Of a stretch of DNA of 32,189 nt, positions 21,777-32,189 are shown piece by piece. The first letter of the stretch is position 1. Every line of letters begins with the position of its first letter. The position numbers and the translations under genes are program-made. The stretch is from a virus. Lineage: Duplodnaviria; Caudoviricetes. The notes below the pieces were generated by a model. It was given only the letters and a program-made list of their open reading frames with translations. It ran no database searches and was not told the DNA's origin. The DNA lies in the IMG/VR virus record IMGVR_UViG_3300033076_000047, positions 1 through 32,189 of that record. One strand, written 5' to 3'.

Positions 21777-22672
21777 TTGATTGGTTGGTTGTTTCGTTCA
21801 AGAATGGTTAGATGGTTGGGGTCAAAAACAACAAAGTTTCTGGTTCCTTTTTGTTTGTCCCTGCTTAATTGGTCAAGATATTTAATTCCACGAATTCCAG
21901 CTTTTTCAAGCACTTGCTTGCCTTCTTCGCCTTTTCCAACTTTTTCCAATAAATCGCCACCAAGGTCATTCATGTCCATGCCCAAAGATTTCGCTAACTT
22001 ACGCACATGAGCTGGTTGATTCTTTAATGGCTCATCCCAATCCAACATTCTTCTTATGTGAGTATCGGGTAAATCAACTTTATATAAATTTCCAATGTTT
22101 TTTTGATAAGAACCAGATTCAATTGATTGAATTGCTTTTTGAATTAAATCTCTTGATTCTCCGCTGAATGTCGTTTCACCAACTTCAGGCATTACATAAT
22201 TCAAATGACTTAATGCTTTTTCTTTATTTCCCATCATAGAAACAAGATCGGCAGCGTAAGCATCGGGAGTAGAAGTGGGCTTTACTCCACCAGATGAAAT
22301 GTAGGTTTTAGCAACTTCTGGATTTTGAGCCGTATATAGACCTTTTCCATATGCTTTGCTTCCTTCTCCAGTTCCTATTTTTGAAAGATCAAACTTTTCA
22401 AACAAATGAGGCGAACCATGCCAAACAGTCATCCCAACAGGGTTATAAGCCTCACTCATGGTTTGCATGAGCTGTTGACCAGCAGGACCAGTTAGCTTGC
22501 CTGTTTGCTCCAACTCAGCCAATGCTTGGTCGTTCAACTGGTTGAAGTCCCTTGCTCGGTCATTTGCATAGCCCAAAATTTGTTGGAGACTTGCGCCAGG
22601 GTTGCGGATAAAGTCACCGCCCTTGCGTTGGGCTGTGTTGATGGTGCTGTAAATGTCGGCTAGGGTAGGCAT
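21773..22672 (-). CDS. ADP-ribosyltransferase-like protein (resembles the ART domain of phage polyvalent proteins)
   Basis: WHGSPHLFEKFDLSKIGTGEG..AYG.GLY.A....VA..Y, GNLYKVDLPD, LDWD.PL..Q, GIRGIKY.D..SR...GTRNFVVFD. Confidence 0.65.
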   Translation of the reverse strand: MPTLADIYSTINTAQRKGGDFIRNPGASLQQILGYANDRARDFNQLNDQALAELEQTGKLTGPAGQQLMQTMSEAYNPVGMTVWHGSPHLFEKFDLSKIGTGEGSKAYGKGLYTAQNPEVAKTYISSGGVKPTSTPDAYAADLVSMMGNKEKALSHLNYVMPEVGETTFSGESRDLIQKAIQSIESGSYQKNIGNLYKVDLPDTHIRRMLDWDEPLKNQPAHVRKLAKSLGMDMNDLGGDLLEKVGKGEEGKQVLEKAGIRGIKYLDQLSRDKQKGTRNFVVFDPNHLTILERNNQPIK

Positions 22673-22700
22673 TAGAAATCCTCTGGTTGTTTACCAGATT

Positions 22701-22862
22701 TTATTTCCTTTTGGCTGTTTTTGCCGATTCTTTAAAGGCTTTGGCTGTTGGTGCGCCAGCTTCGCCAGGCTTACGCATACGCTCAACAGGCTTTCCTTCT
22801 GCCTTTTGGCGCTTAATGCGTTCTTGCTTGGCGTGGATGTTTGCGTATAAACCTTGTTTCAT
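22701..22862 (-). CDS. Small basic protein (53 aa)
   Basis: Own translation MKQGLYANIHAKQERIKRQKAEGKPVERMRKPGEAGAPTAKAFKESAKTAKRK; TAATG coupling; absent from the ORF track. Confidence 0.8.
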   Translation of the reverse strand: MKQGLYANIHAKQERIKRQKAEGKPVERMRKPGEAGAPTAKAFKESAKTAKRK

Positions 22863-23134
22863 TAGCAATTCCAGTTTTTCAATGATGCCTTGGCTCGTTC
22901 TGCTGGACCTTTGGCGTTCTTTACTACGCCTTCCATCCTTGCACAGAAACTGGCTTTTCGGCCTTCATCCGCCTTGGTTTTTGGGTTTGGAGCAGGCGGC
23001 TTTAGATTTGCGTTGTTCTTTTTGTTGTACTCGGCACGACCTTTGGCGGTCATTCCTGCGCCTTTTTCCGTTGGGTTGTAGGTTTTATCTTTGCCAGTGG
23101 TCTTGTGAGGAATTGGCTTGTCGTGTTTTTTCAT
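22862..23134 (-). CDS. Small basic protein (DUF6321-like)
   Basis: GMTAKGRA.YN...NLK.P...R.SFCARM.G...SLK.W.C. Confidence 0.75.
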   Translation of the reverse strand: MKKHDKPIPHKTTGKDKTYNPTEKGAGMTAKGRAEYNKKNNANLKPPAPNPKTKADEGRKASFCARMEGVVKNAKGPAERAKASLKNWNC

Positions 23135-23268
23135 TTTTTAGCCTTTTTAGCAGCTTCACGCTTCTCAGCGTATGCGATTGCCACGGCTTGCTTGACAGGT
23201 TTACCCGCCTTCACTTCCGTTTTGATGTTTTCTTTAAACGCCTTCTGGCTGGTGGACTTCTTCAGCAT
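23131..23268 (-). CDS. Small basic protein (45 aa) with KQAVAIA motif
   Basis: Own translation MLKKSTSQKAFKENIKTEVKAGKPVKQAVAIAYAEKREAAKKAKK; GGGGA RBS; ATGA coupling downstream. Confidence 0.8.
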   Translation of the reverse strand: MLKKSTSQKAFKENIKTEVKAGKPVKQAVAIAYAEKREAAKKAKK

Positions 23269-23452
23269 TGGATTCCCCAAAAAATGACATTACATCAACG
23301 ACTTCGTTCAATTCTCTAAAGCGTTGCTCAAAGGAATACACGATTCCGTGATACATCTTATAGAAATATTTGTTCCGTGTCTTGTAATACTCAAGCTGGC
23401 GTTTTGCCAAGCTGTAAGCCAATGCCAACGTGTAGACGTTTTCAATCTTCAT
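23234..23452 (-). CDS. Hypothetical protein
   Basis: ATG 23452 overlaps the groES stop (ATGA); Tyr-rich 72 aa. Confidence 0.55.
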   Translation of the reverse strand: MKIENVYTLALAYSLAKRQLEYYKTRNKYFYKMYHGIVYSFEQRFRELNEVVDVMSFFGESNAEEVHQPEGV

Positions 23453-23733
23453 AGTTCTTCCACAAAGCAAACATCCTGCCAGCTCATCTTTAGGTGGCGT
23501 TGACCGTCAATCTCAATCGGCTCCCATTTCAGGTATTCATCGGCAGCCGTTGCGCCAACAGTTCCAAAATGGATTTTGTCGCCAATTTTCAGCCCTTGAG
23601 CCAAAGATTCATCACTTGCGGCAACCACATAGCCAACCGTGTCAGCGCCTTGGACTTTACTTAGGTCCAATAGGTCTGACTTAAAACGTTGTTCGGGTTT
23701 GACAATAATCTTGTCATGCAGAGGCTTGAACAT
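23449..23733 (-). CDS. groES: Co-chaperonin GroES (Cpn10)-like protein
   Basis: MFKPLHDKIIVKP, G.VVA, LKIGDKI.F, IEIDG...L.M...DV..V; GGGGAG RBS before ATG 23733. Confidence 0.8.
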   Translation of the reverse strand: MFKPLHDKIIVKPEQRFKSDLLDLSKVQGADTVGYVVAASDESLAQGLKIGDKIHFGTVGATAADEYLKWEPIEIDGQRHLKMSWQDVCFVEEL

Positions 23734-23941
23734 CGTTCTCCCCTTTCTTTGGGCGACCACGGCGCTTTACTGGCTCAACCGTTACGGTCAAAGATTCCTC
23801 ACCAACTGTGAACTGTTGCTCTTTTGCAACATACTCACCGCACCATTGGTGTTCGGCTTTTCCAATCTGCTCTGGATAACGCAAGCAAACGCCTAGTGCG
23901 TTGCCTTGGAAAAACTTACAAGTCTTACAAAAATTAACCAT
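23714..23941 (-). CDS. Small Cys-rich protein with KRRGRPKK tail
   Basis: CxxC..F...G.C.RYP...WCGEY; AT-hook-like RGRP; start ATG 23941 overlaps the HNH stop. Confidence 0.7.
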   Translation of the reverse strand: MVNFCKTCKFFQGNALGVCLRYPEQIGKAEHQWCGEYVAKEQQFTVGEESLTVTVEPVKRRGRPKKGENDVQASA

Positions 23942-24437
23942 GATTTGCAAACTCTCCATGATTTTTTGATCTGAATTCTTTTACAACTTTTTCAGCTTCT
24001 TGCAAGTCTGTAAACAATCCCAACCAATATGACTTTCCATTAACAGAACATCTAACAGAAAATTTTTGATATTGTTTGTTAAAATTTATGCCTTTTATGC
24101 CAGTTTTGTTTGATTTGTATATTTTTGTGTTATGAGAATTTTCAGAAAAAGTTGCTTTTCTTAAATTTTCAATTTTATTGTTTGATCTGTCACCATCAAT
24201 GTGATCTAAGCATTTAGGCAAATTGCCATGAAACATGGCGTAGATCAAACGATGAACTTGGTATTGTTTACCAAAAATTTTTGTTGTTTTGTAACCGTCA
24301 CCGTTTATACAACCAACTTCTTTGCCTATCAAGTCAGTTCGGTGTCTGGTTGTGTTTTTCCAAAATAGCTTTCCATCACGATAGTCAAACAGATCGTGTA
24401 GTAAGTCTTTTGTCAAGTTAAAATTATTATCAGCCAT
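23934..24437 (-). CDS. HNH homing endonuclease with AP2-like C-terminal domain
   Basis: VHRLIY..FHG...LDHIDGDRSNNKIENLR.AT..EN..N; NKTGIKGI...LGLF; visibly AT-rich. Confidence 0.9.
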   Translation of the reverse strand: MADNNFNLTKDLLHDLFDYRDGKLFWKNTTRHRTDLIGKEVGCINGDGYKTTKIFGKQYQVHRLIYAMFHGNLPKCLDHIDGDRSNNKIENLRKATFSENSHNTKIYKSNKTGIKGINFNKQYQKFSVRCSVNGKSYWLGLFTDLQEAEKVVKEFRSKNHGEFANHG

Positions 24438-24463
24438 GCAAAGACCCTTTCTTTGTTTGGTTA

Positions 24464-24527
24464 GAAACCCATTGGCGTTGTCTCCCGCCTTTGGGTTTCG
24501 CCTTTTATAATCGGCACATCAATTATA
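24464..24527. promoter_or_regulatory. Divergent -10 boxes and leader hairpin
   Basis: TATAAT on + (24506-24511) and on - (24527-24522); hairpin GAAACCCA-aa-GGCG-N8-CGCC-aa-TGGGTTTC (24499-24464). Confidence 0.55.
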
Positions 24528-24539
24528 GGAGCATTTTCC

Positions 24540-24707
24540 ATGATGACCAATTACACCGTTACGCAAAAGAAAAACAAGCCAACTCCCACTGGCTACTACG
24601 AATCCAAAGCGGAACACAAAGAAGAAATGCGCCGCATTGCCAACGTGGAAAAAGAGCTGAAAAAGCATGAGGCAAAGCCCATGTCTAAGGCTCACAAGAA
24701 GGGTTAA
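24540..24707 (+). CDS. Small basic protein (55 aa), counter-oriented
   Basis: Own translation MMTNYTVTQKKNKPTPTGYYESKAEHKEEMRRIANVEKELKKHEAKPMSKAHKKG; AGGAG RBS at 24527-24531; fills the only gap in minus-strand coding here. Confidence 0.7.
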   Translation: MMTNYTVTQKKNKPTPTGYYESKAEHKEEMRRIANVEKELKKHEAKPMSKAHKKG

Positions 24708-25017
24708 GCTCTTTGGGCCACTTCCCGTTGGCCTTTAATTTAGCAACGGTCTTTTGATAGGCCATTTGCCACAACATACGGCGCTGTTCTTTATTGAGCC
24801 TAGCGCCTTGGTCTAGTTCCGTGTGGCATTTTTGACACAAAGCGGCTGTGAATTCGTCACTAGCCTTGATTCCTCTTGCCTTGCCCCCTAAGTCTGACCA
24901 GTTGCTATGTGCCGCCTGAGTTTGCCCTTCAATATAGCAATTTTGACAAGGCAATTCAGCAACATTCATCAGATGTTTTCGACTTCTAAAGTATTGTTGT
25001 TTTGGTCTTGCAATCAT
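24685..25017 (-). CDS. Zn-binding His-Me finger protein (DUF968/YbcO-like, nin-region nuclease)
   Basis: RS.KHL..VA.LPC..C, QAAHSN, G.KASD.F...LC..CH...DQG; ATGA-coupled. Confidence 0.7.
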   Translation of the reverse strand: MIARPKQQYFRSRKHLMNVAELPCQNCYIEGQTQAAHSNWSDLGGKARGIKASDEFTAALCQKCHTELDQGARLNKEQRRMLWQMAYQKTVAKLKANGKWPKELNPSCEP

Positions 25018-25634
25018 TTTGATACAGCCATTTCTTGTGACCATCCACGCTTTAGTCTTTGCTGAACTTTGTCTTGGTTCAATCCATTTGCTTCACAGTA
25101 TTCTGACATTGTCATTGGTCTTTCGCCAACAGTAATGATTACATTATTGCTTCTGTTGTTTTGCTGTTCTTTTTGTGTTGCCCATCGACAATTTTCTTTG
25201 TAATAGCCTTTTGTCACATCAATCCTATCAATTGACATTCCTTTTGGACACTCGCCCATGTCTTCAAGAAACTTCTCAAATGAGCCAATCCATTCATCAC
25301 AAACTGTGATTCCAATCGCTCCATATCTGTGATATTTCTTGTTGTTTGGGTTGTAGCATCTTTGTTTCATGCCGCCCCAACTCCTGTAAGTGTTTGTTTC
25401 TGTCATTCCATGTATGCGTTTAGCCCTTCCTTTTTCGGCTGAAACATCAAGAAATAAGCACCCGCAACTTTTTGTCTGTCCAGTTCTCAAACACGAACTA
25501 GAAACATCTTTTGTGTTTCCACATTCACAAAGGCATTTCCAGAATACAGCTCCACTTGAACCTCGTCTGTTTGTTTTTTCAACAACAGTTAAACGACCAA
25601 ACTTTTCACCAAGCAAATTAACAAGCTGCCCCAT
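25014..25634 (-). CDS. HNH-like endonuclease with N-terminal FGRL/CxC zinc module
   Basis: G.KFGRLTV, W.C.CECG, SCGC, W.GMKQRC.NP, YG..GI.VC.EW, SIDRID...GY..ENCRWAT..EQ.NN. Confidence 0.8.
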   Translation of the reverse strand: MGQLVNLLGEKFGRLTVVEKTNRRGSSGAVFWKCLCECGNTKDVSSSCLRTGQTKSCGCLFLDVSAEKGRAKRIHGMTETNTYRSWGGMKQRCYNPNNKKYHRYGAIGITVCDEWIGSFEKFLEDMGECPKGMSIDRIDVTKGYYKENCRWATQKEQQNNRSNNVIITVGERPMTMSEYCEANGLNQDKVQQRLKRGWSQEMAVSK

Positions 25635-25637
25635 ATA

Positions 25638-25670
25638 AAACCTCTAAAGTCTTTAGATGTTTCTATTCTA
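25638..25670 (-). promoter_or_regulatory. -10 box plus RBS-occluding hairpin of the endonuclease gene
   Basis: TAGAAT (25670-25665), then AAAC-A-TCTAAA-GAC-TTTAGA-G-GTTT, whose 3' arm contains GAGG. Confidence 0.6.
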
Positions 25671-25672
25671 CA

Positions 25673-26146
25673 TCATGCTGTCACAGGCTCAATTTTCCGC
25701 ATTTTCCTTGCTTTGAACTCTTTTTCAATGTCTTGCAATGCCAGCTCCAAAGTTCTAACTGGGCATTGTTTTAACTGCTCATCGTGCAATAAAAGCACAG
25801 TTTCAACAGCCTGAAGCTCTAAGCCAGTAAAAACAAAGCTCTTTCCGCTAATCCCACGTTGAGCCATCGCAAAGATTGCGTCTTGAGCCTGTCCGATTTC
25901 CTCAAGCCAATCACGACCAAGCTGGCGTTTTGCCAAAGCCTCTGCACAATTGACCATCGTAATCAAGTTATCCACATGATGCGTGTCGCCTCTGCCTTCA
26001 CGGATTTCGTCAAAAGAAACGTGGTTTTTAATCATTAGCTTTGTTCCTGCGTCTGGAACGTCTGCGACTTTTTTGAATCCTGAGATAACCCAAGTCAAAG
26101 TGTCCATGCGAACGCCTTTTGGCTTGTATTTGCTTTTTTTACGCAT
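25673..26146 (-). CDS. Conserved-looking hypothetical protein
   Basis: MRKKSKYKPKGVR start at 26146 overlapping the HNH stop; 157 aa helical. Confidence 0.7.
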   Translation of the reverse strand: MRKKSKYKPKGVRMDTLTWVISGFKKVADVPDAGTKLMIKNHVSFDEIREGRGDTHHVDNLITMVNCAEALAKRQLGRDWLEEIGQAQDAIFAMAQRGISGKSFVFTGLELQAVETVLLLHDEQLKQCPVRTLELALQDIEKEFKARKMRKIEPVTA

Positions 26147-26630
26147 TTTGAAAAATTCCATGTGTTTGATAAATTTTTGATGCTTTTATGTAAGCTTTTC
26201 CAGCATCTTCTGCATTTTTATGAGCGCCAAGATTTATTCTTTTTCCTTTTACAAATATTTGCGCTCTCCATGCTTTGTCTTTTTTATTCCACCAAACGCC
26301 TTTATATCCAGATTTGTTATCTCTATGAATCTTTTGGTTTTGTAGATTTTCAAATGCACAAACATCTCTTAAGTTTTCAATTCTGTTATCAGTTCTTATG
26401 CCATTTATGTGGTCAATCATTCCTTCTGGAAATTTTTTATATACATAAAACCATGCTAATCTATGAGCATAGTAAAGCTTACTATCAAAAGATAACGTCA
26501 AATATCCATTCTTTGTTTTTGAGCCTAAAACTTTTCCAGATTTAGAGCCTCTACAAGCTTTTGCTCTTGTGAAAACACCAGTTTCTTTGTTGTAAGAGAT
26601 TTTTTCTGTAAGTTGTAGATAGTCAATCAT
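26139..26630 (-). CDS. HNH homing endonuclease with AP2-like domain
   Basis: YAHRLAWFY....P...IDHING.R.DNRIENLR; NKSGYKGV...W.AQI...LG; GAGGTG RBS before ATG 26630; the longer ORF-track start lies within a structured leader. Confidence 0.9.
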   Translation of the reverse strand: MIDYLQLTEKISYNKETGVFTRAKACRGSKSGKVLGSKTKNGYLTLSFDSKLYYAHRLAWFYVYKKFPEGMIDHINGIRTDNRIENLRDVCAFENLQNQKIHRDNKSGYKGVWWNKKDKAWRAQIFVKGKRINLGAHKNAEDAGKAYIKASKIYQTHGIFQNA

Positions 26631-26632
26631 GT

Positions 26633-26720
26633 CGCACCTCGTTATTGGTGGAAGCGTTACTAAGAGAATGTGGCAGGGCGGTAACGAATCGCCTTTTCCC
26701 CCGCTAAAGGTAGCCACGCC
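26633..26720 (-). ncRNA. Candidate cis-regulatory three-way-junction RNA, copy A
   Basis: GTGGC-TA-[CCTT-TAGC-GGGG]-GAAAA-[GGCG-ATTCGTTAC-CGCC]-CT-GCCAC; loop complementary to GTAACG (26660-26655) and TAACGA (26644-26639, overlaps RBS); TAAAAT just upstream. Confidence 0.65.
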
Positions 26721-26726
26721 CATATT

Positions 26727-27131
26727 TTACTCAAAAGTGATGCCGTTTGTAGCGCCCCAAGCATAAAGCCATTCAATAAACTGGCTTCCTTGTTCTTGCG
26801 TAAAGTTTCTTGTTTGAAATCCAAGTTGAACGATGCCTGTATTGTCCAAGTTAGGAACAACTTTCCCACTACTTTGCCCAATCTCACGCATAAACTGATC
26901 TACTAAAAGGCGCTTAAAGTCTTCTGCTGACCATTTAGCACCCATGTGCTGCGCCTGTTTAGCAATCTGTCCAATCAATTCGTGATACAGCTTCTCGGTG
27001 TCACGGCTTTTGCTCTGCGCCTTAATCTCAAGGGTAAGTTTCTTGCCAGACTTCAACGATTCTTTGACTTTAGGCCAAAGACCGTTCATCAATGCTTGCG
27101 CTTGTTCGTAGCTGTCAAGGTCGTACTTCAT
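26727..27131 (-). CDS. ninB: NinB/Orf family recombination protein
   Basis: KSR...KLYH..IG.IA.Q, W..EDFKRL, VVP.LD..G.V.LG..T..F.......IEWLYAWGA.NGI.F. Confidence 0.8.
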   Translation of the reverse strand: MKYDLDSYEQAQALMNGLWPKVKESLKSGKKLTLEIKAQSKSRDTEKLYHELIGQIAKQAQHMGAKWSAEDFKRLLVDQFMREIGQSSGKVVPNLDNTGIVQLGFQTRNFTQEQGSQFIEWLYAWGATNGITFE

Positions 27132-27379
27132 TTGAGCCTATCAGCCACCAAAGTGCTATATCCCGCAACGTCATGCCAACTGTCAAAGTAATCAGGGTCG
27201 CCATTAAGAATTCGCGCAATCTTATGACAAATCATCTCCAGAGCCTCGCACTGGTCAGGCGCTAAGTTTTGATAGTCGTATTTCCAAAGGACTGCTTTTA
27301 GTTCTTGGCTAATTTTTGCGTGTTCTGCAAATTCACCATAAGTCTTTTGACGTTGTTTCAAAGTTTTTTCAATGTTCAT
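27128..27379 (-). CDS. DUF6378-like protein
   Basis: L.QR...YG.F, EALEMI.HKIARILNGDP...DSWHDVAGY..LV. Confidence 0.75.
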   Translation of the reverse strand: MNIEKTLKQRQKTYGEFAEHAKISQELKAVLWKYDYQNLAPDQCEALEMICHKIARILNGDPDYFDSWHDVAGYSTLVADRLK

Positions 27380-27639
27380 ATCACTCCAATCATTCTCAAA
27401 GCCTGTTCAGGGCCTTCAATTCGCTCTAACCTACCACCAACCCACTTTGCAAAAAAGTCTTGTTGTAGCTTCGTTAAAGCCTTTTTAGGCCCACTCTTTA
27501 CTTCAACCAAGTAAGTTACTCCACCATAGCCAACCAGTAAGTCCACTGGTAAACCAATAATCCAGACGTAAGCACCAGCAGCGCGTAAAGCACTAACGAT
27601 TTGCTCTTGTGTAGCATCAACACGGGCTGCGTATCTCAC
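27376..27639 (-). CDS. Small PD-(D/E)XK nuclease (VRR-NUC/resolvase-like)
   Basis: RVD..Q..IV.ALR..GA.V, PVDLLVGY.G...LVEVK, LT..Q..F...W.G; GTG start with GGAG RBS. Confidence 0.75.
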   Translation of the reverse strand: MRYAARVDATQEQIVSALRAAGAYVWIIGLPVDLLVGYGGVTYLVEVKSGPKKALTKLQQDFFAKWVGGRLERIEGPEQALRMIGVI

Positions 27640-27791
27640 TTAGTCTCCAAAGGTAATTCAACAACAGGCAAAGCCAACATATTCTCTTTAGCATACTCAA
27701 ACCCAAGGTCGTATGCGTTTGACATTGCTGTGATTGTGTTTTCATCGCATCCAACGCCTCTCAGCATTGCAATCATGTCATCTTTGCTCAT
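27636..27791 (-). CDS. Hypothetical protein (51 aa)
   Basis: Own translation MSKDDMIAMLRGVGCDENTITAMSNAYDLGFEYAKENMLALPVVELPLETK; coupled on both sides. Confidence 0.7.
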   Translation of the reverse strand: MSKDDMIAMLRGVGCDENTITAMSNAYDLGFEYAKENMLALPVVELPLETK

Positions 27792-27982
27792 GTGTTTTTT
27801 CCCTTAAGTTTGGCTTCTGTTCTTTCAACAAGACCACGATAGTCTTCGTACTCTGTGTTTTCCACAAGGTCGTTAATCTCAAACACGCTCAATCCTTCCC
27901 ATGTGCGCTGTGGTGGAGCATCCCAAGCGCCACAAACGCACTCAGCCGCACTATGCGCTGCACATTCACATTCTTTTGTCAT
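27788..27982 (-). CDS. Hypothetical protein (64 aa, Cys-rich N-terminus)
   Basis: CxC...CxC, W.GLS..EI, EAKLK.KN tail; GGAG RBS. Confidence 0.65.
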   Translation of the reverse strand: MTKECECAAHSAAECVCGAWDAPPQRTWEGLSVFEINDLVENTEYEDYRGLVERTEAKLKGKNT

Positions 27983-27985
27983 GTC

Positions 27986-28453
27986 TTACTCCTTAATGCC
28001 GTGGGCGGCTTGGATGGCTCGGAAAGCAGCATCTGCTAGTTCTGTTTCGCTATAAGCGCCAAGCACACATTCTTTTGCGAACACCAATAAAGGGTTCTGA
28101 TTGTTCAGCGGCTTGCGCTGTGGTGTGGTGATGTAGAGAGGAATGGTATGTTCGTCAGTACGTTCCCACACAAAACAATCTGTGCAAGTCTCGTCTTTGC
28201 GCATCCACGCCACAGGCTCCTGCTCTGGCTGTGCCACTCCTGTTTTGCACTCAGTCTCAACAGCGCACCATTGACACTTGCGCTCATGCTCATGGTTTGG
28301 CTGAAAGTCAGCAAAACACTTTGGCTTTAAGTCGCGCTTTGGCTGTGCCAAGGCTTCAATTAGCGCCGCGCACACGATGTATTCAGGCGAGTTGGGTGAG
28401 TGGATTTCTACGCCTTCACGCGCCAGCTTCAATGCTTCTTTGTGTGTTGTCAT
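27986..28453 (-). CDS. Eaa/DUF551-like mosaic accessory protein
   Basis: EALKLA, AQPEQEPVAW, PLY..P.RKPL, AAHGIKE modules. Confidence 0.65.
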   Translation of the reverse strand: MTTHKEALKLAREGVEIHSPNSPEYIVCAALIEALAQPKRDLKPKCFADFQPNHEHERKCQWCAVETECKTGVAQPEQEPVAWMRKDETCTDCFVWERTDEHTIPLYITTPQRKPLNNQNPLLVFAKECVLGAYSETELADAAFRAIQAAHGIKE

Positions 28454-28698
28454 TTTGTTTCCTTCAACTCAACTTTGCCGACCATGTATTCAAACTTGTG
28501 GCTTTTTGGGTTTTTCTTTTTTACTTCTGCTGCGGCTTCTTTTCGTGTTGCATAAGTTCCATGAATCTCAAAAGCCTTCATGGTTGCAGTGCCACGGCAT
28601 CCGTAACTGATTCGTGGATGCTTGCGAACAATCCAAATAACAGTAGGCTTTTCTGCCATTGCTCGTAAATAATCTTCTTGGCTCAGATAGATATTCAT
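28450..28698 (-). CDS. Hypothetical protein (82 aa)
   Basis: Start moved to ATG 28698 (TGATG coupling): MNIYLSQEDYLRAMAEK... Confidence 0.6.
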   Translation of the reverse strand: MNIYLSQEDYLRAMAEKPTVIWIVRKHPRISYGCRGTATMKAFEIHGTYATRKEAAAEVKKKNPKSHKFEYMVGKVELKETK

Positions 28699-28805
28699 CA
28701 CATAGGGCTTTCTGGCAGTTGTGCGCGTTGTTGTTGCGCGTATTCTTTGATTTGCTTGGCAGTCCAAGGTACTGCGCCTGTTGATGGTGGAAAGGGCCAG
28801 TTCAT
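28698..28805 (-). CDS. Tiny protein (35 aa) with WPFP N-terminus
   Basis: Own translation MNWPFPPSTGAVPWTAKQIKEYAQQQRAQLPESPM; ATGA and TGATG coupling at both ends. Confidence 0.65.
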   Translation of the reverse strand: MNWPFPPSTGAVPWTAKQIKEYAQQQRAQLPESPM

Positions 28806-28954
28806 AGCTTTTCCAATGCAAAGTCAATGGCGACCAATGCTTTTTCTTCAAGATCAAACTGGTCGCTCATAAAGTTGGTTTCTGTACTTTCTAAGGCTTT
28901 ACGAGCCAACTGCAAGGCTTCTTTAAGCTGTTCAATCAAGGCTTGTTCACTCAT
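28802..28954 (-). CDS. Hypothetical protein (50 aa)
   Basis: Own translation MSEQALIEQLKEALQLARKALESTETNFMSDQFDLEEKALVAIDFALEKL; GAGGTG RBS; ATGA coupling. Confidence 0.7.
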   Translation of the reverse strand: MSEQALIEQLKEALQLARKALESTETNFMSDQFDLEEKALVAIDFALEKL

Positions 28955-29139
28955 TTGGTCACCTCTGCGTCAACAATACGAATCAAAGCGGCAATCATGT
29001 CTTTGGCTTGCTCTTTAGTCAGACTAACGTGGCATCGAGCTGCTTCAGTCACCAAGCCAATCCAAACGTCACCATCGTACAAATCCACGTTAATGTGTCG
29101 GCGCTTGTGTATCGTTTCAATCTTTGTGTCGAGTTCCAT
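28951..29139 (-). CDS. Hypothetical protein (62 aa)
   Basis: ORF with AAGGA RBS, part of the coupled chain. Confidence 0.7.
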   Translation of the reverse strand: MELDTKIETIHKRRHINVDLYDGDVWIGLVTEAARCHVSLTKEQAKDMIAALIRIVDAEVTK

Positions 29140-29149
29140 ACCTATCCTT

Positions 29150-29323
29150 TCATTTACGTTCGTTAACTCGTTCTCTTACAGCTTCAACCAACCCCTTAAA
29201 CAGTCCAGATTGATCGTCTTCAAGTTCTTGCGCCCTTTGCTTGGCGTAAGGTATCCAGCCCTTCTGTAAAGCCATCTTCGTCAGATGCTCCACTTGTTGC
29301 TCGAATACTTGGTTGAAATCCAT
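29150..29323 (-). CDS. Hypothetical protein (57 aa)
   Basis: Own translation MDFNQVFEQQVEHLTKMALQKGWIPYAKQRAQELEDDQSGLFKGLVEAVRERVNERK; overlaps the 68-aa ORF by 104 nt. Confidence 0.6.
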   Translation of the reverse strand: MDFNQVFEQQVEHLTKMALQKGWIPYAKQRAQELEDDQSGLFKGLVEAVRERVNERK

Positions 29324-29426
29324 CTAAGTCGCCTGTCAGTTCAAGTGCTTTGTTGATTGTGTCTAGATTATAAGACAGATTATCCTTAACCTGGTCAAGA
29401 ATTTGATGTGCCTGTATGTAATTCAC
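29220..29426 (-). CDS. Hypothetical protein (68 aa)
   Basis: GTGA coupling; A.QILD.V.D......I.KAL.LTGDL motif. Confidence 0.6.
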   Translation of the reverse strand: MNYIQAHQILDQVKDNLSYNLDTINKALELTGDLDGFQPSIRATSGASDEDGFTEGLDTLRQAKGART

Positions 29427-29704
29427 AACGCTTCCTGTGCAAATTTCAACGCAACCTGGTTTACATAAATTCCAGCTTGATGCTTATCAATGATGCGTTT
29501 TGCCCATGCTCTTGGGTCGCCACGATACTTGTCAAGCTCTGGCATATAGGCTGGCGCTTGTCTGCAATAAGAATGAAAACACGGTCCGCACATTGAGCCA
29601 TATTTAATCAATGTGTCTTGTTGCGTCATGTTTGTGCATTGAGAACAAGGCTTCAAAGGGCTTGAAACGCTGTTGGCTACGTCTTTAGGTTTTGCGAAAG
29701 TCAT
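29423..29704 (-). CDS. Small Zn-finger protein downstream of the initiator
   Basis: CxxC...CxxC, DP.AWAKRI...........FA.EAL; ATGA-coupled to the replication gene. Confidence 0.7.
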   Translation of the reverse strand: MTFAKPKDVANSVSSPLKPCSQCTNMTQQDTLIKYGSMCGPCFHSYCRQAPAYMPELDKYRGDPRAWAKRIIDKHQAGIYVNQVALKFAQEAL

Positions 29705-30468
29705 TTTGTATATTTCCCATCAATGATTTTTTGAAAGTTTGTTGCGTTGACTACCCATTCAAGATCAGGTCGCCACGTTCGACCATTACTTTCAAATCCG
29801 TTAGCCAAAGTTGTGTCGTTAGCTATGTAGCCAAAAAATGAATCCCACCACCTTATACCGTCTTCTGTGGTCTTGTAGCCATCAGGAGAATAGGCCGATG
29901 GTTTGCCAGCTTGAATCCAACGCTGCTTCATGTTGGTTTGGCGCGAACCTTCCCATGACCTCGGCTGCGTCAGGTGTGGGAGATGCTTTCCCCAAAGCAA
30001 CAAAAGCTCTTTATGTGGACAGGGCGGGAAGGCACTTCCCGACAAAGAAGGTTTACCTTCTTTAATAATTGGTTCTTGGTTAGTGGTTAGTGGTTTATGG
30101 TTAGGTGGCGCTTCGTCTACGACCTGTTCACGGTTCGTGCGTTTTTCTTTACGCTTCGCTTCTCTTTCAGTAGCGATTCGTTTGTTTGTGTCTGCGTTCT
30201 TGTGATAGTGCAGCAGTTCCTCAAGAATCCTGTCTTGCACATAACACCCATCTTTATCAAGCACAAAAAACCTGCTTAAAACAAACTTAACAGCTTCAAC
30301 CTCTGCCTCGGTCGATGCCCAAGTCCATTCCAATGCTTGTTCTAAAGTTGGGAAAACTTCACGGTCGTAACACGAATCAATAAGAAGCGTGTACGCTCCG
30401 TGTTGAAGCATGGTCAGCCGACCAGCTTTTTTGGCGTAATCGCCAAGATTGCGTTTGTAGTAGTGCAT
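29701..30468 (-). CDS. Replication initiator-like protein, DUF1376/YdaU N-terminus
   Basis: MHYYKRNLGDY....L...HGAY.LL.D..Y..E; C-terminal W..DLEW.....NF.KII.G.Y; lambda O-like position. Confidence 0.8.
   Translation of the reverse strand: MHYYKRNLGDYAKKAGRLTMLQHGAYTLLIDSCYDREVFPTLEQALEWTWASTEAEVEAVKFVLSRFFVLDKDGCYVQDRILEELLHYHKNADTNKRIATEREAKRKEKRTNREQVVDEAPPNHKPLTTNQEPIIKEGKPSLSGSAFPPCPHKELLLLWGKHLPHLTQPRSWEGSRQTNMKQRWIQAGKPSAYSPDGYKTTEDGIRWWDSFFGYIANDTTLANGFESNGRTWRPDLEWVVNATNFQKIIDGKYTK
30070..30104. repeat. Five tandem 7-bp TGGTTNN repeats inside the initiator gene (candidate origin element)
   Basis: TGGTTCT-TGGTTAG-TGGTTAG-TGGTTTA-TGGTTAG next to AT-rich TTTAATAAT. Confidence 0.6.
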
Positions 30469-30470
30469 AA

Positions 30471-30567
30471 AGCCCGCTTTTTAACAGCCCCTTTGATGAA
30501 GAAACGGCGGCAGGAGAAGGGGTAACTCTTTTCGGTCTGCTCATGACTTCAGACCTAGCCGTGTTTC
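30471..30567 (-). ncRNA. Candidate cis-regulatory three-way-junction RNA, copy B
   Basis: CGGC-TA-[GGTCTG-N10-CAGACC]-GAAAA-[GAG-TTACCCCTT-CTC]-CT-GCCG with outer GAAAC/GTTTC; loop complementary to AAGGGG (30493-30488) and imperfectly to AAGCGGG at the RBS (30479-30473). Confidence 0.65.
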
Positions 30568-30572
30568 AAAAC

Positions 30573-30581
30573 ATTATATCA
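30573..30581 (-). promoter_or_regulatory. Extended -10 promoter for the replication leader
   Basis: Perfect TG-A-TATAAT, 5 nt before the first stem of RNA copy B. Confidence 0.7.
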
Positions 30582-30728
30582 GTTGAACCACAAGTAAAAC
30601 CCGTGAAGGATGCCGATTGGAAAAAAGATAGCGCCAGCCACCAAGAAACCCCAAAACCCTTGTGCAAAACAAGTGAAGATGTGAGTTAGCCAAGCAGCTA
30701 GCACAGAAAAGCCAATGATGTAGCCCAT
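30579..30728 (-). CDS. Small two-TM membrane protein (49 aa)
   Basis: Own translation MGYIIGFSVLAAWLTHIFTCFAQGFWGFLVAGAIFFPIGILHGFYLWFN; TGATG coupling; AAGGA RBS. Confidence 0.75.
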   Translation of the reverse strand: MGYIIGFSVLAAWLTHIFTCFAQGFWGFLVAGAIFFPIGILHGFYLWFN

Positions 30729-31033
30729 CAGGATTCCTTTATAAACAAACCTTCAGCGTTCATGTAGCCTCGGCGGTCTTTGATTTGTTCGTAGGCAGCC
30801 TCAAGGCAGTCTGTCAGATTCACATCCAGCAAAGCACAGACGTTAATCAGGCAAACCACCGTGTCGCCAATGGCATCAATCGCATCGACTTTGTTGTTAT
30901 CACGCAACGCATCAACCAGCTCGTTGATTTCCTCAACGGCTTTGATTGACTGAGCAAACGGAGTGCTGTTCGGAATGATCTTTCGAGCTTCTGACCAGCG
31001 AATGACTTTGAGTTCTGTTTCAGCGTAGCTCAT
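30728..31033 (-). CDS. MazG-like nucleotide pyrophosphohydrolase
   Basis: Q..K..EE..EL, DAIGD..V.LI, CL..AY..IKDR.G....G.F.KE. Confidence 0.85.
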   Translation of the reverse strand: MSYAETELKVIRWSEARKIIPNSTPFAQSIKAVEEINELVDALRDNNKVDAIDAIGDTVVCLINVCALLDVNLTDCLEAAYEQIKDRRGYMNAEGLFIKES

Positions 31034-31185
31034 CAGAAACAGCTCGTTGTGCAGGATTGACCGTTACCGATGCAAGTTGTTGTGCAAGTCACAGTCTTGC
31101 CGTTCATCATGTAGGTGTTGGTATACATCTGTGCATTGGCGCTAATTGCCAGCGTAGCCAAGATGATTGCTAGTGCTTTTTTCAT
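31033..31185 (-). CDS. Secreted Cys-rich peptide (50 aa)
   Basis: Own translation MKKALAIILATLAISANA-QMYTNTYMMNGKTVTCTTTCIGNGQSCTTSCF; Sec signal with A-x-A site; coupled to both neighbours. Confidence 0.75.
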   Translation of the reverse strand: MKKALAIILATLAISANAQMYTNTYMMNGKTVTCTTTCIGNGQSCTTSCF

Positions 31186-31352
31186 TTTTTGCCTTTCAGT
31201 AGTTCAGGGAAAAGAAGTTTGATTTGCCAGATGCGTGATTGTGGAATTTTGTTGTTCTCCTTCCACAGCCACACAGTGCCTCGTTTAACTCCAAGAATAC
31301 GCGCAAGCTCACTCTGTGAGCCAGCACGATTGATAAGATTATTGATGTCCAT
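31182..31352 (-). CDS. Cro-like HTH repressor
   Basis: AGSQSELARILGVKRGTV..W....IP..R..QI....PE; start ATG 31352 has no RBS (leaderless). Confidence 0.85.
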   Translation of the reverse strand: MDINNLINRAGSQSELARILGVKRGTVWLWKENNKIPQSRIWQIKLLFPELLKGKK

Positions 31353-31358
31353 TTCGTT

Positions 31359-31387
31359 AGTGTATAGAAAAATTGACATAAATACAA
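31359..31387 (-). promoter_or_regulatory. Sigma70-type promoter for the cro-like gene (leaderless transcript)
   Basis: TTGTAT-N17-TACACT-N6-ATG. Confidence 0.7.
31361..31378. promoter_or_regulatory. Operator-like imperfect palindrome 1
   Basis: TGTATAGAAAAATTGACA, overlapping the leftward promoter spacer and -10. Confidence 0.6.
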
Positions 31388-31412
31388 CACATCTAAAAAT
31401 ATTTTTGCTTTG

Positions 31413-31442
31413 TTGGATTTTGTCTAGAAAACTTGATATAGT
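31413..31442 (+). promoter_or_regulatory. Rightward promoter for the recombination arm
   Basis: TTGGAT-N18-TATAGT with extended TG (TGATATAGT). Confidence 0.6.
31421..31438. promoter_or_regulatory. Operator-like imperfect palindrome 2
   Basis: TGTCTAGAAAACTTGATA, 15/18 identical to site 1 and 60 bp away. Confidence 0.6.
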
Positions 31443-31487
31443 TCAGTCATCCCGTAGCGCAACGCAAGCGGTAACTTAGGAAATCAA

Positions 31488-31682
31488 ATGAAACTCAACG
31501 ACACAACCCGCACATTCCCACGCACTCTGGCTGAGGCGTTTCCTGACAATGTTGAAGACCAGCAACGTCTGCAACAAGGCGAATGGATGGAACAACACCA
31601 GCCAGACCATGAAAAGTATCTCAACATCGTTTATTCCTTTGCTGCTGGCTTTGTCGTGGCAATGATTGTTTTCGGGGGTTAA
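31488..31682 (+). CDS. Hypothetical protein with C-terminal TM helix
   Basis: 64 aa; TRTFPRTL.EAFP motif; AGGA RBS; first gene of the rightward arm. Confidence 0.7.
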   Translation: MKLNDTTRTFPRTLAEAFPDNVEDQQRLQQGEWMEQHQPDHEKYLNIVYSFAAGFVVAMIVFGG

Positions 31683-31683
31683 T

Positions 31684-32189
31684 ATGAAAAACATCGCATC
31701 TGCTTTGGTCAAAGCACAAAAAGCCTTTGGCCCTGCTTTAAAGACCTCTACAAACCCTCATTTTCGTTGTAAGTATGCAGACCTCTCCGCTTGCGTTGAG
31801 GCTGTCATTGACGCTTTAAACAACAATGGCATCTTCTTGCTGCAAAAGAACTACGACTGCGCTGACGGCATCATGTGCGAGACAGTTTTTGTCCATGAGT
31901 CAGGCGAAATGTTGGAGTGTGGAATTGTTCACTTTCCAGCCGTAAAAAAAGACCCTCAAGGCTATGCTTCCGCATTGACCTATGCTCGGCGCTATTCATT
32001 GATGGCTGCTTGCGGTATCGCTCCAGAAGATGACGATGGCAACAAAGCCTCACGCCCTGCGCCTGTTGATTCAAACTTGATGGCTGACCACATCACAGCA
32101 ATTCAAGACGCTACCGATGAGGCAACGCTTAAAGCAGCCTACCAAGCCGCTTACAAAGCCTGTGGCACAGATGCAAACTGGCAAAAGAA
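31684..32189 (+). CDS. erf: ERF-family single-strand annealing protein, truncated at the right edge
   Basis: Own translation MKNIASALVKAQKAFGPALKTSTNPHF..KYADL...HESGE...DPQGYASALTYARRYSL.A..GIAPEDDDGN; missing from the ORF track because there is no stop in the window. Confidence 0.92.
   Translation, partial: MKNIASALVKAQKAFGPALKTSTNPHFRCKYADLSACVEAVIDALNNNGIFLLQKNYDCADGIMCETVFVHESGEMLECGIVHFPAVKKDPQGYASALTYARRYSLMAACGIAPEDDDGNKASRPAPVDSNLMADHITAIQDATDEATLKAAYQAAYKACGTDANWQK

Follow-up and report, generated by a model that had tools for sequence, protein, structure and literature searches.

An int-alpA-type leader RNA before a phage HNH endonuclease gene: a recognition loop matched by two covarying sites downstream of it, one of them at the ribosome-binding site

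Introduction

The C4 RNA of phage P1 is a leader-derived antisense RNA that acts through loop pairing. The CI RNA of phage P4 and the IsrK RNA of Gifsy-1 are likewise structured RNAs derived from leaders, which pair through a loop with short targets and act on replication or antirepressor genes, and in both systems one promoter yields a short regulator and its own read-through target mRNA, according to passages of PMC4825925. The targets of P4 CI lie both upstream and downstream, and pairing causes termination (PMC4825925, same passages). Two parts of the present subject were known beforehand: the RNA family itself, which is catalogued in Rfam, and the limits that RNA structure sets on the translation of T4-type homing endonucleases, as treated in part of PMC2988022.

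Here we analyze two leaders, copy A and copy B, in a virus record that is linear, 32,189 bases long and 93% complete (CheckV); this whole stretch of DNA is called the window. Both leaders resemble the Rfam family int-alpA (RF02996), which we take to be one of the candidate motifs of Weinberg et al. 2017. The term 'alpA' was not found in the main text of PMC5737381, the part of that source covered by our search. In the main texts of the open-access literature searched, no paper was found on the function of int-alpA or on the second target, fourth hairpin or palindromic loop described below.

Results

Genes for portal, terminase, capsid and tail proteins are present in the window, whose minus strand carries a replication/nin region. 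Copy A lies in this region, between a ninB-like gene and a gene for an HNH_3 + AP2 protein that is likely a free-standing homing endonuclease. The motifs and coordinates that a preliminary description gave for it are all correct to the base on the minus strand (Table 1 lists these and further features). Copy A consists of a three-way junction with hairpins P2 and P3, followed by two short sites, T1 and T2, complementary to the P3 loop (L3). T2 can form six Watson-Crick pairs with L3 and possibly a seventh, G.U pair, and overlaps the first two bases of the ribosome-binding site GAGGTG (GAGGUG in RNA, 26640-26635). The pairing of T1 with L3 is predicted to form an H-type pseudoknot, in which T1 would serve as a parking or decoy site. 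The duplex energies with L3 are about equal (-5.6 kcal/mol for T1 and -5.9 kcal/mol for T2), and the local minimum free energy (MFE) of the P4 hairpin around T2 is -5.7 kcal/mol. No -35 consensus was found for the TAAAAT box, the box itself was missing from a strict promoter scan, and no terminator was called after P1.

The second leader, copy B, has the same junction as copy A with different stems and precedes an unrelated gene, just as the preliminary description had it. Its T2 pairs with L3 only with a bulged C (-5.9 kcal/mol, vs -9.7 kcal/mol for T1). The DUF1376 protein encoded under copy B is likely a phage replication initiator.

Table 1 Features of the two leaders and their neighboring genes in the window
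Feature	Position	Strand	Remark
ninB-like gene	26727..27131	-	phrog_72; upstream flank of the cassette; relatives with and without cassette
-10-like box TAAAAT	26724..26729	-	overlaps ninB stop codon; predicted leader promoter
Copy A three-way junction, int-alpA type	26670..26717	-	RF02996 match; MFE of core
P1 GTGGC/GCCAC	26717-26713 / 26674-26670	-	
J1/2 UA		-	
J2/3 GAAAA	26698-26694	-	
J3/1 CU	26676-26675	-	
P2 hairpin CCUU/GGGG	26699..26710	-	two U.G pairs; UAGC tetraloop (L2) 26706-26703; predicted homodimer (kissing) loop
P3 hairpin GGCG/CGCC	26677..26693	-	9-nt recognition loop L3
L3 (DNA) ATTCGTTAC; as RNA AUUCGUUAC	26689-26681	-	
T1 GUAACG (DNA GTAACG)	26655..26660	-	6 bp with L3, flush at loop 3' end
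T2 UAACGA (DNA TAACGA)	26639..26644	-	within P4 loop
P4 hairpin CACC/GGUG, loop AAUAACGA	26635..26650	-	3' arm is GGUG of the ribosome-binding site
HNH_3 + AP2 endonuclease gene, 163 aa	26139..26630	-	start ATG 26630; gene under copy A
Copy B leader, whole	30466..30578	-	TATAAT 30578-30573; junction 30560-30509
Copy B L2, palindromic UCAUGA		-	
Copy B L3 UUACCCCUU	30525-30517	-	
Copy B T1 AAGGGG	30493-30488	-	
Copy B T2, bulged	30479-30473	-	ATG 30468
DUF1376 / 'primosomal protein' gene	29701..30468	-	gene under copy B

Taken by itself, copy A has no more stable a fold than shuffled sequences (z +0.49 to +0.91), and a loose junction pattern matched the window twice vs 0.43 expected, a number reached by 8 of 100 shuffles. 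The case for the element therefore rests on comparison across the family. We also note that the reading frame of the HNH gene stays open through the leader as far as an ATG at 26723, which lies 3 bases past the ninB stop. This upstream ATG (ORF 26139-26723) was rejected as a conserved feature, since the two closest cassettes, those of the leaders L531 and L543, have a stop in this frame inside L3.

The preliminary description had found no named RNA family to assign, a statement that is superseded by an Rfam match of both copies to RF02996 over the whole model (positions 1-71). Copy B scores 35.8 bits, equal to the gathering cut-off, and is the only gathering-level cmscan match of the window. 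Copy A scores 35.4 bits, 0.4 below the cut-off of 35.8, and is thus called int-alpA-type here and not a formal hit. The E-values within the genome itself are 1.6e-7 (A) and 1.2e-7 (B), and RF02996 had no match in 14 control genomes. Within 22500-32189, copies A and B are the only Rfam matches at E<=1. In the model alignments, both copies contain the UA, GAAAA, G-C and CU junction residues of int-alpA. Relatives that share P2 and P3 with copy A exceed the gathering cut-off, and those bearing its very loop (L269, L272, L296 and L309) score 36-43 bits. RF02996 was also checked in 50 viral records chosen from pattern hits of three scans (30+19+1), with longer records preferred: 45 match at E<=0.001, and 27 of the 50 reach the cut-off; two copies are present in 8. 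Judged by sequence, the RNA of copy A is a member type of the catalogued int-alpA family. The genes here, encoding an HNH nuclease and a DUF1376 protein, differ from the int and alpA of the family name.

The 3' tail of the RF02996 model is complementary to its own P3 loop and hence reaches T1. Its 71 positions do not extend to T2, P4 or the start codon. The printed structure line of the model is without a pseudoknot, and cmscan may leave such marks out. Rfam gives the type of the family as 'Gene; sRNA'.

A strict junction pattern has an estimated ~4100 matches in stored viral stretches, 121 of which were sampled. Both P2 and P3 have at least 3 pairs in 95 of these 121 viral loci, vs 8 of 120 loci from cellular genomes. 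The int-alpA family is, by this estimate, common in phages. The cellular pattern matches were mostly chance, with only 8/120 folding; among the loci that fold are some in records with the titles Planctomycetota, Chitinophaga, Desulfobacteraceae and Terriglobia. A search of the E. coli Sakai chromosome gave no copy, and BLASTN against annotated phages gave 3 records when copy A was the query and none when it was copy B. In the cultured Pseudomonas phage PS-1, a leader-like match precedes the HNH gene.

Two further scans were seeded on P2 alone, leaving P1 and J3/1 unconstrained. In these scans P1 shows compensatory changes (for example GGC/GCC, AGC/GCT, GCC/GGC, GGA/TCC and GAC/GTC), and UA, GAAAA and CU are kept. 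Altogether 326 of 365 loci could be parsed as a junction, and 255 remained after removal of duplicates and cut-off loci; the parser preferred CU and demanded TA or TG, so counts of the junction residues are partly built in. A TAnnnT box ending 4-18 nt before the P1 core is present in 193 of the 255 homologs vs 16 in a control window. Because this -10-like box stands just before P1, the RNA likely starts the transcript.

Family members precede replication initiators, homing endonucleases and antirepressors. The downstream peptides form 117 clusters among 236, and the two largest clusters (31 and 21 members) are DUF1376. A Pfam scan covered 52 proteins, namely the 2 of the window and 50 of the 116 other cluster representatives, many of them incomplete. 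It found 8 HNH-type, 5 DUF1376 and 3 HTH_36 proteins, and one each of AntA, Rha, ParB and ScpB, with 32 lacking a match. A related leader was also seen between lysis and terminase genes in Salmonella phage BIS08P22 (L487) and an E. coli prophage (L488); in such lambdoid/P22-like genomes it precedes small accessory genes such as DUF551. Another locus (L067) has a terminator-like hairpin and a U run right after T1 and is possibly a stand-alone small-RNA or attenuator form.

To assess loop-target pairing, we took one representative per distinct loop (n=114) and set the target windows by position alone. At least 5 Watson-Crick pairs with L3 were found in the T1 window of 97/114 representatives, vs 8.6 (max 17) with swapped loops, and in the T2 window of 78/114, vs 12.8 (max 21). 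In the coding and upstream windows, such pairing occurs in 3/114 each, equal to swapped loops. We note that the homologs are related and the counts tree-free, which overstates independence and significance, though more than 100 different loops are represented. A separate run with 92 viral loci gave the same covariation, and each of the first six T1 positions shows all four types of Watson-Crick pair. The preliminary description had proposed a modular leader with a loop able to pair with two sites downstream of it, one of which covers the ribosome-binding site, and had named covariation across homologs beforehand as the check that could overturn it; on this point the counts bear the proposal out, far exceeding the swapped-loop controls.

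The two targets pair with L3 in different registers. T1 is flush with the 3' end of L3 in 207/225 loci, and T2 in 41/225. T1 starts 10-15 nt past GCC in 97/104 loci, and its helix is 5-7 bp long in 95/104; by the established geometry, an H-type pseudoknot has this distance and helix length. Mostly, 1-11 nt separate the end of T2 from the start codon downstream, and T2 pairs with the first loop base left free by T1 in 45/79 loci vs 30.1 expected. This suggests that T2 was selected for pairing and is more than a duplicate, and a mere DNA duplication of T1 is disfavored by the same count. By simple helix energy, which lacks pseudoknot and tertiary terms, T1 beats T2 as the partner of its own loop in 174/225 loci, so the own loop should mostly be off T2. 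The length of P3 does not correlate with the distance to T1 (rho -0.03) and is uninformative on cis tethering.

Folding of the region around T2 predicts a fourth, weak hairpin, P4, which holds the ribosome-binding site and usually has T2 in its loop. T2 is within a hairpin loop in 68% of 225 loci vs 37% after shuffling of the 5' flank, and the MFE of the P4 segment is -3.64 vs -2.30 kcal/mol with the 5' flank shuffled. With a mean of -3.6 kcal/mol, P4 is a weak hairpin, and about one third of cases lack it. T2 overlaps a Shine-Dalgarno-like 4-mer in 117/187 loci, and T2 and the P4 arm together span 72% of such bases, a figure that has no control set. Loop-loop pairing of L3 with T2 would keep P4 and pair all six bases of GAGGUG, which would make it the off state.

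The P2 loop, L2, is often self-complementary. Among loci from the scan whose query lacked P2, a palindrome of at least 4 nt is present in L2 of 41 of 57 distinct P2 types, vs 17.9+-3.1 in 2000 shuffles (max 28), and the palindromic loops have ten different 4-nt cores. The control loop L3 has palindromes in 6/76 vs 11.2 expected and thus shows no excess. The 16 non-palindromic P2 types include five GACG and three UAGC tetraloops, and GACG tetraloops make loop-loop contacts in retroviral RNA dimers, as described in parts of PMC5874298 and PMC516450. The UAGC loop of copy A has no 4-nt palindrome; it contains only a self-complementary GC dinucleotide at the same two positions, through which copy A may kiss the L2 of a partner RNA.

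Next to ninB, leader and nuclease gene occur together or are missing together. We examined 80 relatives of ninB, 75 of which had sufficient downstream DNA. Leader and HNH-AP2 gene both follow ninB directly in 2/75, and in none of the 75 was one found without the other within 300 bases of ninB. In 8/75 relatives, the next gene of the window directly abuts ninB. A junction across 26128/26146-26756 in metagenome contigs, from related phages, also hints at a cassette-free form. Given this joint presence or joint absence, leader and HNH gene of copy A are, on genome comparison, an optional cassette after ninB that is presumably gained and lost as a unit. Beside the 7 nearest relatives found of the HNH protein (39-50% identity), the parser detected no int-alpA leader.

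The two related leaders L531 and L543 match window positions 26751-26693, from the ninB end through promoter, P1 and P2 up to GAAAAG; the match is exact for L531, and L543 differs by a few changes at the ninB end. Past GAAAAG, both have a different P3 loop with matching T1/T2 and an HNH protein only 37-39% identical. From these two loci, the block that carries the loop code appears to travel with the gene, with an exchange point at the junction.

Four HNH-family genes lie within 2.7 kb of the window (23934-26630, minus strand), just upstream of the packaging genes, and an int-alpA-type leader precedes only one of them. A second HNH-AP2-like gene (23934-24437) is 36% identical to the HNH gene under copy A. 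Its leader (24430-24525, minus strand) has a TATAAT box followed by two hairpins, the second over the likely ribosome-binding site, and differs in structure from the int-alpA type. The MFE is -32.2 kcal/mol (z -4.05), 0 of 200 shuffles were equally good, and no Rfam match was obtained for this leader at E<=1.

Discussion

The loop-target covariation and the position of T2 suggest that leaders of the int-alpA type very probably control translation through L3 pairing at T2. The preliminary description had proposed a translational switch acting in cis: the loop does covary with T1 and with a T2 overlapping the ribosome-binding site, and action in cis is one possible reading of this.

As to how the switch would operate, we tentatively favor, while giving it somewhat less than equal weight against all other readings together, a self-counting brake, in which the L3 of an RNA would rest on T1 of the same molecule, and a partner RNA, held by P2-P2 kissing, would lock T2. 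Transcription would begin at P1, and T1, being made first, would form an H-type pseudoknot with L3. Nothing but the weak P4 would then cover the ribosome-binding site of a lone mRNA, which would be translated; it should be on because T1 is made first and is usually stronger than T2. As transcripts accumulate, P2 loops would kiss, and a partner with a free L3 would bind T2 in the P4 loop, leaving GAGGUG fully paired. A second RNA that supplies L3 for T2 fits the palindromic L2, the place of T2 in a hairpin loop and the greater strength of T1. No more than 67/225 loci have a terminator-like U tract after P1, so that a universal intrinsic terminator there is rejected, and the simplest source of the partner is assumed to be a stable 5' fragment released by cutting in the U-rich linker. 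IsrK and P4 CI are precedents for a leader that yields both a short RNA and its target. The outcome, with the off direction assumed, would be an early pulse and then shut-off of nucleases, replication initiators and antirepressors, and the loop sequence would act as an address that prevents cross-talk between copies A and B. L3 differs in 7/7 parsed within-genome pairs (the window and 6 of the 8 two-copy records), which argues weakly for such orthogonality since most random pairs differ too. The assumed processing step, the overlap of T2 with a Shine-Dalgarno-like 4-mer in only 117/187 loci, the weakness of P4 and its absence in about one third of loci, the non-palindromic L2 of copy A and its near-equal T1 and T2 count against the self-counting brake.

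The last of these points, the near-equal energies in copy A, also fits a damper acting wholly in cis. Here one L3 would toggle between T1 (translation on) and T2 (translation off), with relative stability or the order of folding fixing a low rate of translation or a brief period for it after transcription. Covariation of both targets with L3 suits it, as do their shifted registers (T1 flush in 207/225, T2 in 41/225), which toehold exchange would need, and T4-type homing endonucleases are damped by cis hairpins (PMC2988022, in part). Such a damper leaves the palindromic L2 without a role, and T1, stronger in 174/225 loci, would make its off state a minor one. We consider this damper unlikely, if far from remote. 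The same parts could also work with opposite polarity: a lone RNA would lock T2 and be off, and dimerization through L2 would shift L3 to T1, turning translation on above a threshold, late in infection or with many genomes. IsrK, whose short form activates in trans (PMC4825925, in part), is a precedent, and T4 endonucleases are translated late, as stated in part of PMC2988022. Against this stand the ordinary cis H-type spacing of T1, its being made first and its being usually the stronger partner, and we regard opposite polarity as quite improbable.

The fixed junction residues, kept while stems vary, and the tight T1 geometry invite another reading, in which the invariant junction (UA, GAAAA, G-C, CU) and the T1 pseudoknot form an aptamer for a ligand or host protein that chooses between T1 and T2. 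The downstream proteins (117 clusters among 236) are too diverse to serve as a common effector, which would then have to come from the host. But only ~11 bases are near-invariant, perhaps just to build the junction, the downstream genes have no metabolic theme, and the L2 palindromes are left unexplained; none of the riboswitch models of Rfam matched copy A. We regard this reading as improbable. A role outside translation, in which the element attenuates transcription, affects stability or serves as a site at the level of DNA (single-strand or protein-binding) and stands before genes by coincidence, would accord with the U-rich linker after P1 (48% U), the terminator-like hairpin after T1 in L067 and the Rfam type 'Gene; sRNA'. 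It is very improbable given that T2 ends mostly 1-11 nt from the start codon, that the element stands right after the -10 box, and that the G.U pairs of P2 favor an RNA of the minus strand.

A wider claim, that int-alpA is a widespread protein-free 'RNA quorum' device which counts transcripts through dimerization and uses a re-codable 9-nt loop as its address, is possible but doubtful. If it holds, this portable leader would give each cassette private negative feedback, and in a lysogen or co-infected cell, silencing would strike, sequence-specifically, any replication or nuclease gene that enters with a matching code. Should action in trans prove true, the family would be a compact autoregulator with more than 100 natural orthogonal codes, of interest both to synthetic biology, as a part, and to the study of phages; should only action in cis prove true, it would be a neat but more ordinary translational damper. 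In either case, an orphan Rfam family gains a testable anatomy of two loops, two targets and one hairpin over the ribosome-binding site.

The likeness to C4 and CI suggested in the preliminary description helps as a matter of logic, but no C4-type or IsrK model of Rfam matched at E<=10, where only int-alpA and a chance SNORD31 match appeared. In contrast to CI, the int-alpA type has both targets downstream and reads them with one loop, its second loop being self-complementary; upstream complementarity to L3, as in C4/CI, is at chance level across the family. IsrK activates, according to part of PMC4825925, unlike the brake proposed here. Retroviral dimer-linkage loops are also self-complementary loops on short stems, and GACG is common to them and 5/57 P2 types, but they belong to an unrelated system that has only the type of contact in common, and the dimer here is a predicted one. 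A functional parallel to the effect proposed here comes from T4-type I-TevI, segB and mobE, mobile nuclease genes whose translation is limited by RNA structure that covers the ribosome-binding site, as discussed in part of PMC2988022. Each of those structures is a single hairpin, the effect of which is relieved by a late promoter within it (PMC2988022, same part), whereas the int-alpA type has a conserved junction and two alternative targets and stands before many unrelated genes.
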